Source: a virus (lineage: Duplodnaviria > Heunggongvirae > Uroviricota > Caudoviricetes). Taken from it: a stretch of DNA of 4,544 nt. This document shows positions 1 to 3,000 of the stretch, in pieces. Made by a program: the position numbers. The DNA is taken from positions 1 through 4,544 of IMG/VR virus record IMGVR_UViG_2534681979_000017; one strand, written 5' to 3'. Each line of letters opens with the position of its first letter. Position 1 is the first letter of the stretch.

Positions 1-3000
1 CATACGCGTGAAACAAGAACACGTACGCAATATGAAGTGGTATATGGTGCATATAAAGGTAAAGAATCCCAGCAGATTTATTTTGTTCCCTTTATGACCG
101 ATGGTAGCGGAGTTAATACACCGACAAACAACCCGTCAGAAGATCCTGATATTGCCGGGTCTGGTTATTACGGTTCGGCATCCCGAACGAACAAAAACTG
201 GGTATCATCAAATCGCCCGACGCATTTCAGCTCATGGGCGCGTCGTGGCATTATTCCCGATCGTATGGCAACTGCTATTCTGAACGTAGCCGGGCGCACC
301 TCAGCCTTCATCAGTGGTAAGGCACCGGAAATCAAACCCTCGCCCGGCGTCGACACGCCATCGGGGCCGTCTGAAGATGCATCCGTACGCACAATCTCCC
401 TGTTGCCGACAGCCGGAGATGCTGCTGCGCAGGGCTGGAGCATTAAGAATGGCGGAATTCAGTTGTCAGATGGTGTATTTAAGATCACCAAGCAGAGCAA
501 TAAAGCCTGGTCCCTGACGCGCCCGGTGGATGACGCAGTCTCCCTGCTGACACGGGGTGGCAGACTGAGCTGTAAGTTTCGACTGTCAGGCGCACTGACC
601 AACAACCAGTTCGGTCTGGGAATTTATCTGTATACCGATGTAGCGTTACCTGACGTCGTGGCGATGACCGGGACTGGTAACCCGTTCCTGATGTCGTTCT
701 TCACCCAGACCACAGACGGCAAACTGAATCTGATGCATCACAAGAAAGCAGGAAACACAAAGTTGGGCGAGTTCGGGAATTACAGTAACGACTGGCAGAC
801 GCTGGAGCTGGTGTTCACCGCCGGCAGTGCCACGGTTACTCCGAAACTGAATGGAGTGGCTGGCCCGGCATTCCAGGTCATAAAAGACAGTCTGACAGTG
901 GGACTAAATGCACTGACGCTGACGGATATTACCAAAAATGCAACGTATGGCGTTGAGATAGAAAGTCTGGTGCTGGAGATAAATGCACCGGCATCATCAT
1001 AAAAAGTGAGCCAGTCAAATGGAAGGTATCGTTAAACTCACCGGTAGTGTCAGTGGGTCGTCTGAGATGCCTGCATGAGTTATCAGAGCCATCAGTACTT
1101 AACTGGTGGCTTTTTTATTGTTGTCAGCTTCCGGATAACGGGAGACGGGGTATGTACCAGATGGAAAAAATCACAACAGGTGTGTCATACACCACGTCAG
1201 CGGTGGGAACGGGCTACTGGTTCCTGCAGTTGCTGGACAGGGTTTCCCCGTCTCAGTGGGCGGCAATAGGCGTGCTGGGGAGTCTGCTGTTTGGGCTGCT
1301 GACATATCTGACTAACCTGTATTTCAAAATCAGAGAGGACCGTCGTAAGGCGGCGCGGGGGGAGTAAAGCGATGAAGAAAAAATACGAACTGGGTGTTAA
1401 AGGGATAAATAATTATCCGGATAAGATTACTGTTACTGTGGCACTGGAAATTGGTGGGTATCCGTCACTGTTGTTGCCAGATGTGGCGATTAGTCTTGAC
1501 CGTACTGAAGGTGCCACGCTGGAGTTTTACGAAGCTGAGGCGAAAAAGCAGGCGAAGCAGTTTTTCATGGATGTTGCTGCCGGGTTATGTGAAGGGAACG
1601 AACCGTTGCCGGAAAAGCGCCCCATAATTTTAGAGGCGCAGGATGTGTTGATAACCTACAAAGGAAAGCTACCGGGAAGAATTACTGGTTCTCTGAAGAT
1701 GCCGCCGTCAACACTGCGGTCAGAAAAAGAGGCGTCTTGTCTGCAGTCTGAGTACTCCATTACGGTTAAAAGTGCCGGAGAGGAAGGAAATAAACGTTAT
1801 TTTATTGCGTCTGCACCTGATAAAGATCAGGAATGGGAGTGTAACCGGCCATCCTTTGTTGTATACGGAGATGGCGGGAAAATAACCATCTCAGAAAATG
1901 GGAAATTAACACCGCCATCGCACCAGCATAGTGAGGCGCTCATTGAATTTGCCATTGATTACCTGAAGAACAATAAAAAGCAGGGGCTGATGAAGCGCGT
2001 TGGCCGTTGCATGGGATATCTGCAGATAGCTGCTGAGATTGAAGCGCTGGCCAGTGGTGCGGACAATGATGCAGTTGTGCTGGAGGCTCTTCTGCGTGAT
2101 TTTGATAATACGCCTTTAAGAAAGCACCTGTTGACTGGATGCAGCCGGGGATGACTTATCTGAAAGGGCGTATATAAGGTGGCTCGTTATCTGTTGCTGG
2201 ATAATCGACTGAAGATGCGTTCTTTTTGTGTTTTTGCGTAATGATTGTCCCACTCACAATCAAGGTAGCTTAATTCTTCATTCAACCAGTTATTTATATT
2301 GGTCTTAATACGCATAAGCATGGGCTGTGTTAATGCTCTGGCGATAATGCCGAGAGTCACAGGTGTGAGATGTCCATACGGCTCAGCCTGAATGGATTTT
2401 ACTGCATCGTGTTCTTGTGGGAGGAGTAAGAGGCACTCTGATTTTACCCGCTCATTTATGGCTTGCAGGCATAAATCATAATTATGTTGATCGTTATGCA
2501 TGGTTAATCCTCTACTGAAATTGTCAGATATATTTCAGCCATCAGGAAAAACGCCAGTGTCCTACCGCTGGCGGGCTGAAGATTTAACATATCCAGGGAT
2601 TCGGAACCGATAAATCCTGATAAATATCCATGAACACCAAAATCAAATATGGCCTGTCGGCTGCCGTTCTGGCGTTGATTGCCATCGGTGCGCCTGCGCC
2701 TGAAATCCTCGACCAGTTTCTGGATGAAAAGGAAGGCAACCACACCACGGCATACCGTGATGGTGTGGGTATCTGGACCATCTGCCGTGGTGCCACCCAG
2801 GTGGATGGTAAACCTGTTATTCCGGGCATGAAACTGTCGAAGGAAAAATGCGACCAGGTTAATGCCATTGAACGGGATAAGGCGCTGGCATGGGTGGAGC
2901 GCAATATTAAAGTTCCACTGACCGAACCACAGAAAGCGGGTATAGCGTCATTCTGTCCCTATAACATTGGCCCCGGTAAGTGTTTCCCGTCGACGTTTTA

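Follow-up and report, generated by a model that had tools for sequence, protein, structure and literature searches.

The window analysed here, by which we mean the whole stretch of DNA (4,544 nt), corresponds to the entire draft contig AFOB02000025.1 of the Escherichia coli O104:H4 outbreak strain LB226692, an Ion Torrent, reference-guided consensus containing ambiguous bases. It begins with a gene fragment on the plus strand (positions 1–1002), which is open in frame 1 from the first base to a TAA codon at 1000–1002. This fragment is followed by the gene for a class II (P21-type) holin, S (1152–1367, plus strand; Pfam Phage_holin_2_1, E 9e-33), with which the lysis cassette opens, and then by ydfR, R (lysozyme) and Rz/Rz1. 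The gap between the stop codon of the fragment and the holin ATG at 1152 is 149 nt, in agreement with the distance of about 150 bp given in a preliminary description of this DNA.

We identified the fragment, with high confidence, as the 3′ half of the gene nanS-p, which belongs to the late operon of a lambdoid prophage. Judged from its sequence, the region 1–1002 (plus strand) encodes the C-terminal ~324 amino acids of a prophage sialate O-acetylesterase of the NanS-p type. The full-length protein is predicted, on the basis of relatives displaying 98–99% identity over the common part, to consist of about 617–631 amino acids, with domains in the order DUF1737, SASA esterase and DUF6645; these relatives have Pfam matches to both SASA and DUF1737, and a GQSN motif is visible in them. 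The window holds 52–54% of a gene of 617–631 codons, and not its 3′ third, as had been supposed. Glycine, serine, threonine and asparagine together account for 35% of the residues of the fragment, versus 20–28% in four neighbouring proteins, consistent with the composition initially noted.

Neither the fragment nor its full-length relatives matched any NCBIfam entry. Strong matches were obtained with PHROGs, all to families of unknown function, the best being a family of 634 positions covering the NanS-p architecture. A word-indexed homologue search returned CTR4-type proteins and fragments only, with no distant relatives. Earlier descriptions exist of the NanS-p family, of the variant concerned (CTR4, RPTH) and of the alleles from O104:H4, and this nanS-p fragment therefore brings nothing new biologically.

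Sequence quality at the 5′ end of the contig

DNA alignment with phage 86 and E. coli 55989 showed the first 27 nt (1–27, plus strand) to be a damaged contig edge. One G is absent after position 9 and another after position 22 (GG reduced to G), relative to every close homologue examined. These two single-nucleotide deletions shift nanS-p stepwise through frames 3, 2 and 1; the real gene is thus in frame 3 on entering the window, where it runs into a TGA at 9–11, and the start of frame 1, HTRETRTRT (the first 27 nt), is spurious and corresponds to no real protein. With both Gs put back, the reading becomes YAWKQEHGTQYEVVYG, which matches the homologues, and, for the edge at 1–27, YAWKQEHGTQYE.

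The best 60 complete-genome matches listed for a 400-nt query all span 402 nt. Only three indels distinguish the window from 55989, each a 1-nt homopolymer deletion, and none is present in the best genome matches; the third, at the 3′ end of ydfR, is also missing from phage 86, 55989 and AF39. The frameshifting deletions at the 5′ edge are most likely sequencing artefacts of homopolymers, because an Ion Torrent draft contig makes up the whole of the window.

Between nt 77 and 400, the window differs at 39 positions from the syntenic locus of 2011C-3493, a finished O104:H4 genome of the same outbreak clone, but at only seven positions from 55989, and nt 1–76 gave no alignment to the 2011C-3493 locus. 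This region is therefore nearer to the 55989/phage-86 allele than to that of 2011C-3493, and the contig may be a chimeric or collapsed consensus of several nanS-p prophage copies. The best 60 genome matches listed for the first 400 nt all came from other strains, at 98.5%.

Domain organisation of the encoded protein

Positions 28–291 (plus strand; window amino acids 10–97) encode the last part of the NanS-p esterase domain (SASA/SGNH), which was recognised by a phmmer match to 3pt5, with amino acids 10–95 aligning to residues 249–332 of NanS/YjhS (E 1e-17). The preliminary description had proposed looking for SGNH-hydrolase blocks and for collagen-like or coiled-coil repeats. The last SGNH block is indeed present, as RPTH (in RPTHF), with its catalytic-block histidine at amino acid 75 (nt 223–225), invariant in all six aligned homologues, and GQSN is found in the full-length relatives. 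RPTH is the phage-86 variant of block IV (PMC10462455). No collagen-like or internal repeats were found, and the predicted structure contains only two short helices. The chromosomal NanS (YjhS) of E. coli K-12, represented by 3pt5, has an esterase domain homologous to that of the window, including the RxxH block, but lacks DUF1737 and DUF6645, and its C-terminal end corresponds to the start of the window linker. The N-terminal half of the prophage protein, with SGNH blocks I–III, the nucleophile serine block and DUF1737, lies outside the window, beyond the contig end.

The esterase tail is connected to the C-terminal domain by a linker rich in proline and serine (292–408, plus strand; amino acids 98–136, GRTSAFISGKAPEIKPSPGVDTPSGPSEDASVRTISLLP), in which serine accounts for 19% and proline for 17% of residues. 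Its nt 334–381, at the start of the segment modelled, have AlphaFold pLDDT values below 50. The linker displays no similarity to that of phi24B and is devoid of the ‘SSP’ motif tentatively tied to autoprocessing in a phi24B preprint that has not been peer-reviewed (bioRxiv 10.64898/2026.04.10.717836).

The remainder of the fragment (409–1002, plus strand, including the TAA stop) encodes a lectin-like jelly-roll domain (DUF6645, ‘CTR4’ type), as indicated by phmmer, Pfam and Foldseek. Amino acids 137–329 match PDB entry 6yp6, ‘NanS-p’ (phmmer, E 3e-31), and the Pfam DUF6645 match in the fragment (E 1e-19) scores 71 bits, versus a cut-off of 27. An AlphaFold model of the last 223 amino acids, built from an alignment of 18 near-identical homologues and of low confidence (pLDDT 56, pTM 0.60), has a secondary structure that is nearly all beta, as anticipated. 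With this low-confidence model, the best PDB match in Foldseek was again 6yp6 (E 8e-14, TM 0.61), with L-type and legume lectins and sialidase lectin domains next in rank. The ConA-like matches (E 1e-5 to 1e-6, TM 0.4–0.5 and ~10–15% identity, for a query model with a pLDDT of 56) belong to the same beta-sandwich jelly-roll class and include the CRDs of Emp46p/Emp47p, legume lectins and the lectin wings of the Vibrio cholerae and Akkermansia sialidases; precedents for a lectin-like module added to an enzyme acting on sialic acid are found among these matches. The fold is settled by the sequence match to 6yp6, and the Foldseek result is supporting only. The structure prediction and Foldseek search suggested at the outset thus led to the known NanS-p structure first and to lectins second. 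Within the fragment, initially described as a binding-domain protein, the lectin-like part is confined to nt 409–999, whereas nt 28–291 are catalytic and nt 292–408 form the linker.

A sugar site consisting of Y510, Y515, Y540 and F611 has been put forward, as a proposal only, for vb_24B_21 (PMC10462455 and PMC8065619). The counterparts of these residues in the window are F204, Y209, F234 and V300, respectively, such that three of the four positions are aromatic and the fourth aromatic is lost. A lectin role has been proposed for DUF6645, with no experimental demonstration of carbohydrate binding so far, according to PMC8065619.

Late-operon context and comparison with related prophages

A terminator-like hairpin followed by a U-run was detected by scanning and folding between nanS-p and S (1085–1123, plus strand). 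It folds at −17.7 kcal/mol (z −3.3) and is kept in seven loci, those of 434 and phi24B differing in the stem (compared by eye, pairing not scored); in phage 434, it carries a terminator annotation. Q-modified polymerase would be expected to pass through this hairpin. A scan of positions 900–1400 revealed no sigma-70-like promoter, and a search of the window against Rfam at gathering thresholds yielded nothing.

The upstream side of the locus was seen in the syntenic loci of phage 86, 55989, AF39, 434 and 2011C-3493. Near-identical full-length genes (617–631 aa) are flanked by Q/tRNAs (and in some cases stx) on one side and by S on the other in phage 86, 434, 55989 and the finished O104:H4 genome, which puts the lysis cassette at its canonical lambdoid position. 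The cargo esterase of NanS-p type with a lectin-like C-terminus, favoured from the outset on the basis of gene order, is thus borne out by both the 6yp6, 3pt5 and DUF6645 matches and the position between Q/stx and S.

Stx2 phage 86 is among the closest phages described. Its gp03 (YP_794050.1; 631 aa), annotated as a SASA family carbohydrate esterase, lies in a region with 98.1% DNA identity to window positions 1–1150; the esterase tail, including RPTH, is 100% identical and the C-terminal domain 96% identical. This variant was designated ‘NanS-p sequence 20, SASA11, CTR4’, with RPTH, by Pascal et al. 2023 (PMC10462455). In phage 86, stx2AB is directly upstream of nanS-p and, as in the window, nanS-p is directly upstream of S, with the order S-ydfR-R. 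The two differ between R and Rz, where phage 86 has ant and the window has a spacer holding small hydrophobic ORFs. In the enteroaggregative strain E. coli 55989 (WP_000143130.1), DNA identity reaches 98.4% over 4.46 kb; the full gene encodes DUF1737, SASA and DUF6645, and the order is Q, methyltransferase, three tRNAs, nanS-p, S, ydfR, R, Rz and terminase. The syntenic locus of 2011C-3493 carries an intact gene of 617 aa (WP_000874354.1). The window's C-terminal domain is 100% identical to those of both 2011C-3493 and 55989, and neither genome has the two G deletions.

The NanS-p proteins of phi24B (vb_24B_21/gp84) and 933W (z1466/L0105) have the same three-domain architecture and the same place between stx and S; 6yp6 is the crystal structure of the vb_24B_21 C-terminal domain. 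Their C-terminal domains are homologous to that of the window over their full length, at ~36% identity, versus 64% for the esterase tail, in which the catalytic-block histidine is kept, whereas the linkers are unrelated. Unlike the window, phi24B has additional ORFs (DUF826 and others) between nanS-p and S, and no ydfR. The CTR4-type domain diverges from the crystallised CTR1 domain not only in this low identity, but also in its different linker, without SSP, and in the valine replacing the fourth site aromatic. The nanS-p allele of the window travels with lambda/HK97-like head modules, and not with the head of phi24B, a T=9 podovirus.

Discussion

The gene order, together with published work on relatives, suggests that nanS-p would share a transcript starting at pR′ and dependent on Q antitermination with the lysis genes, as well as with stx in prophages that have it; NanS-p would then be made on prophage induction. 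By analogy with the relatives studied, the esterase domain, of the 9-O-acetyl-sialate type, would strip O-acetyl groups from Neu5,9Ac2 and mucin O-glycans, and this de-O-acetylation would let E. coli catabolise sialic acids that are otherwise blocked. Esterase activity and a role in growth have been reported for NanS-p of 933W and EDL933 and for five O104:H4 outbreak alleles (PMC8065619). We propose that the C-terminal ConA-like jelly-roll domain (DUF6645) serves as a putative lectin-like module.

It is possible, but rather unlikely, that the protein is chiefly a virion enzyme decorating the capsid, exposed on the head, where it would bind or deacetylate glycans of mucus or of the cell surface to the benefit of the phage, a role overlapping and compatible with that of a cargo esterase. 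In phi24B, NanS-p (gp84) is abundant in virions and sits on the capsid via DUF1737, which assembles into hexamers on the central hexons of this T=9 capsid, and the protein's jelly-roll domain at the C-terminus is lost autoproteolytically on storage (bioRxiv 10.64898/2026.04.10.717836, preprint); DUF1737 is also retained in full-length proteins closely related to that of the window. However, DUF1737 itself would lie beyond the window, the linker is without the ‘SSP’ motif, and the head gene sets of 55989, 2011C-3493 and phage 434 are of other, lambda- or HK97-like types, one of them including its own head decoration protein; moreover, the phi24B source is a preprint that has not undergone peer review. 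A still more tentative suggestion is that the CTR4-type domain differs from the 933W/phi24B type in glycan specificity or role, or that this allele decorates lambda-like T=7 capsids via DUF1737.

Much less probable than either of these is that LB226692 carries a real frameshifted pseudogene, yielding an N-terminal product of ~298 aa that ends at the TGA at 9–11; the esterase tail and lectin-like domain would then go untranslated unless an internal start, such as GTG 37, were used. The deposited sequence, two Gs short of all homologues and with an immediate TGA in the authentic frame, can be read in this way, and public protein sets often contain truncated or split nanS-p fragments. Nevertheless, the contig comes from an Ion Torrent PGM reference-guided draft, the authors of which found 51 of 1,144 core genes to contain homopolymer errors; all three indels relative to 55989 are single-nucleotide losses from homopolymers, and the two at the edge lie no more than 22 nt from a contig end set by a drop in coverage. 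The intact gene at the same locus in the finished genome of the outbreak clone, and the activity reported for the five O104:H4 alleles mentioned above, also argue against inactivation. Caution is required, because the frame-1 N-terminus and the apparent pseudogene are both unreliable as deposited.

The other identity initially entertained was a tail fibre; as such, or as a receptor-binding protein, it would leave the lysis cassette beside tail genes, away from its canonical place. This reading would accommodate the beta-rich structure and the Gly/Ser/Thr/Asn-rich composition, and some phage tailspikes do bear acetyl-esterase domains (cited in PMC8065619), but we rejected it as having almost no likelihood of being correct, on the basis of gene order and homology to NanS-p: no Pfam or PHROG tail-fibre family was matched, the fragment contains no collagen-like GXY runs or repeated 5-mers, the gene follows Q/tRNAs/stx in every related locus, with the terminase and head genes after Rz, and the phi24B homologue is located on capsid hexons rather than on the tail (bioRxiv 10.64898/2026.04.10.717836).

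The gene is best considered a member of the prophage-borne NanS-p esterases, which enable pathogenic E. coli such as the 2011 O104:H4 clone to use the O-acetylated sialic acids of mucin, and which are co-induced with Shiga toxin. If it is true that lambda-like capsids carry NanS-p, then a displayed mucin esterase-lectin would be a general feature of lambdoid virions.

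Results

Frame 1 of the + strand is free of stops from the first base of the window to a TAA at 1000-1002, and Gly, Ser, Thr and Asn together account for 35% of the 333-codon translation, versus 20-28% in four adjacent proteins. On sequence grounds, this large gene (1-1002) is a late-region nanS-p gene, encoding a prophage sialate O-acetylesterase. In a sequence search of solved structures, amino acids 137-329 matched almost the whole 218-residue chain of 6yp6_A (“NanS-p”; E = 3e-31), the crystallised C-terminal domain, and amino acids 10-95 matched residues 249-332 of 3pt5 (E = 1e-17), deposited as “NanS (YjhS), a 9-O-acetyl N-acetylneuraminic acid esterase”; the two matches do not overlap. 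Pfam identified DUF6645 at amino acids 183-293. These matches, and the position upstream of the holin gene S, bear out the NanS-p-type cargo esterase favoured in the preliminary description, which had also correctly recorded a large gene here, its composition and a holin about 150 bp downstream (149 nt, ATG at 1152). It had taken the fragment for the 3′ third of the gene, whereas it is the 3′ half (52-54%).

Only the final two thirds of the fragment correspond to the proposed binding-type domain, a jelly-roll domain (nt 409-999, +, amino acids 137-333) containing the 6yp6 and DUF6645 matches. It is preceded by the end of the esterase domain (nt 28-291, +, amino acids 10-97) and a Pro/Ser-rich linker (nt 292-408, +, amino acids 98-136). 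The esterase tail contains the last SGNH block, RPTH; its His (nt 223-225) is invariant across six aligned homologues. In a catalogue of NanS-p diversity, the phage-86 protein is “sequence 20”, with SASA variant 11 and C-terminal region type CTR4, and it alone has RPTH in block IV, the others having RSSH or RASH (Pascal et al. 2023, PMC10462455). The window protein carries exactly these features (SASA11, CTR4, RPTH). Its C-terminal domain is 100% identical to those of EAEC 55989 and O104:H4 2011C-3493, 96% identical to that of phage 86 and 88% to that of phage 434, but only about 36% identical to the crystallised phi24B/933W domain (CTR1). The sugar site proposed for vb_24B_21, the NanS-p of phage phi24B, consists of four aromatics, Y510, Y515, Y540 and F611 (PMC10462455); these align with F204, Y209, F234 and V300 of the window protein, in which three of the four positions are still aromatic and one has lost this character. 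Sequence comparison detected no similarity between the window and phi24B linkers.

Gene gp03 of the Stx2-converting phage 86 is 98.1% identical in DNA to window 1-1150, encodes a 631-aa “SASA family carbohydrate esterase” and lies directly 3′ of stx2A/stx2B, before S. The yjhS or “9-O-acetyl-N-acetylneuraminic acid deacetylase” genes of H-19B, many Stx1a phages and the classical phage 434 displayed about 89% DNA identity. The complete E. coli genome closest to the whole window was that of EAEC 55989 (98.4% over 4,462 nt), in which the counterpart encodes 620 aa with DUF1737, SASA and DUF6645, in the order Q, DNA methyltransferase, tRNA-Ile/Arg/Arg, nanS-p, S, ydfR, R, Rz, terminase, portal. 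AF39 and the O104:H4 outbreak strain 2011C-3493, whose genome is finished, have the same gene order. The arrangement in these three genomes and phage 86 indicates that the large gene is a late-region nanS-p and that the lysis cassette occupies the canonical lambdoid position. O104:H4 genomes contain five places matching the window, in agreement with the five nanS-p alleles reported in the outbreak clone (PMC8065619). NanS-p is a well-described family, this variant has already been described and the strain is heavily studied; the object is already known.

An exact-protein look-up with the YdfR of the window retrieved one contig only, 4,544 nt long. The window corresponds to this entire contig, AFOB02000025.1 (GCA_000215685.3) of E. 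coli O104:H4 LB226692, a German 2011 outbreak isolate, and is identical to the stored record save for N at 2061, 2812 and 3546. Compared with 2011C-3493, the window differs at only about two sites across 401-2000 but at 39 across nt 77-400, where it differs from 55989 at only seven; nt 1-76 could not be aligned to 2011C-3493. Both comparisons show mismatches clustered at 2001-2200, 2601-2800 and 3001-3200. The N positions and the nearby shared mismatch clusters suggest either that reads from several similar late regions of prophages were merged into one consensus or that the contig represents a copy absent from both references, and the contig may be a partly collapsed consensus. The contig end (4463-4544, about 80 nt) has no match in 55989 and matches 2011C-3493 and AF39.

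Relative to 55989, there are only three indels in 4.46 kb, each a 1-nt deletion in a homopolymer run: GG is shortened to G after positions 9 and 22, and CCC to CC at 2112, within ydfR (1372-2154), the last also relative to phage 86 and AF39. The authentic nanS-p reading enters in frame 3, where it meets TGA at 9-11, then passes through frame 2 (“KQEH”) and does not reach frame 1 until about nt 23. Coding from base 1, as first described, is not sustained: judged against the homologues, the initial “HTRETRTRT” of frame 1 is spurious. With both Gs put back, the translation reads YAWKQEHGTQYEVVYG, as it does in every homologue. The missing C in ydfR alters the final ~14 codons of the DUF1327/YdfR gene product, and its restoration yields the 268-aa form present in phage 86. 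The best 30 complete-genome matches to 1-1150 and the best 60 to 1-400 were all 2-3 nt longer than the query, indicating that the deletions are peculiar to this draft. LB226692 was sequenced on an Ion Torrent PGM, with reads mapped to EAEC 55989 and the consensus split where coverage was zero, and 51 of 1,144 core genes had homopolymer indels that the authors corrected (PMC3140518). The deletions are almost certainly sequencing artefacts rather than signs of a pseudogene.

The other identity initially considered, a tail fibre beside a non-canonically placed cassette, was rejected: Pfam and PHROGs searches returned no tail-fibre family, the window protein has no collagen-like G-X-Y runs or repeated 5-mers, the AlphaFold2 model of its last 223 residues has only two short helices, and nanS-p sits between Q and S in all related loci. 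This model, based on a shallow 18-sequence alignment (the word-indexed search for homologues having yielded only CTR4-type sequences and fragments), is nearly all beta and of low confidence (pLDDT 55.8, pTM 0.60). The structural comparison proposed earlier (Foldseek against the PDB, with this low-confidence query) placed 6yp6 first (E = 8e-14, TM 0.61), followed by Emp46p/Emp47p carbohydrate-recognition domains, legume lectins, botulinum-toxin binding domains and Vibrio cholerae and Akkermansia sialidases (E about 1e-5, TM 0.4-0.5). The predicted fold is consistent with the published lectin-like jelly-roll and was counted solely as backing for the sequence-level match.

Between nanS-p and S lies a terminator-like element (1085-1123, +), an 11-bp, GC-containing hairpin (1085-1113; -17.7 kcal/mol, z -3.3) followed by a U-run, UUUUUUAUUGUUG, some 30 nt before the start codon of the holin gene. 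The hairpin is conserved in phage 86, 55989, 2011C-3493 and AF39; its stem sequence differs in phage 434 and phi24B, as read by eye in the alignment, with pairing not scored. The phage 434 counterpart is annotated as a terminator.

S (1152-1367, +) encodes a P21-type class II holin (Pfam Phage_holin_2_1, E = 9e-33) and is followed by the DUF1327/YdfR gene, a lysozyme gene, R (2630-3163), and Rz (3806-4273; Phage_lysis, E = 8e-49), with Rz1 embedded in another frame (4026-4211; Pfam Rz1, E = 4e-20). Rz/Rz1 is an ordinary spanin pair, and the sequences of S and the lysozyme suggest a pinholin/SAR-endolysin cassette, an arrangement also annotated in phage 434. S has a dual start (M1 and M4 in MYQMEK), and the hydrophobic lysozyme N-terminus, KYGLSAAVLALIAIGAPAP, looks like a signal-anchor-release segment. 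The S-R interval holds the 783-nt ydfR, which RefSeq lists as a truncated pseudogene for both 55989 and 2011C-3493, and a conserved 104-aa antisense ORF (2187-2501, -; phrog_1853, E = 4e-49) with no Pfam family, which is annotated as hypothetical protein WP_000551290.1 in several genomes. The R-Rz spacer (3164-3805) contains small hydrophobic ORFs, such as 3456-3587 (phrog_4906), where phage 86 and phi24B have ant. Two modules of ~120-135 nt, 3452-3587 and 3590-3707, occur in reversed order in 2011C-3493 (locus L007, 10440-10574 and 10312-10429).

Discussion

The window nanS-p, in its late-operon position upstream of S, would encode a NanS-homologous esterase, with the catalytic-block His retained, joined to a NanS-p C-terminal domain. 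Neu5,9Ac2 esterase activity has been reported for 933W z1466 and for multiple alleles from EDL933 and O104:H4; these enzymes de-O-acetylate mucin glycans, support growth on Neu5,9Ac2 and are co-induced with stx (PMC8065619). In phi24B, gp84 (NanS-p) is reported to be abundant in virions, with its DUF1737 domain forming hexamers on the central hexons of the T=9 capsid and its C-terminal jelly-roll being lost through slow autoproteolysis (preprint, bioRxiv 10.64898/2026.04.10.717836). The window allele travels with lambda- or HK97-like head genes, and its linker has no SSP motif.

What this analysis usefully adds is solely a caution, that this draft contig contains apparent frameshift artefacts and may be chimeric. 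Transcription by Q-modified polymerase should pass the hairpin at 1085-1123; if this element is a terminator between nanS-p and S, then S expression would depend on Q antitermination.
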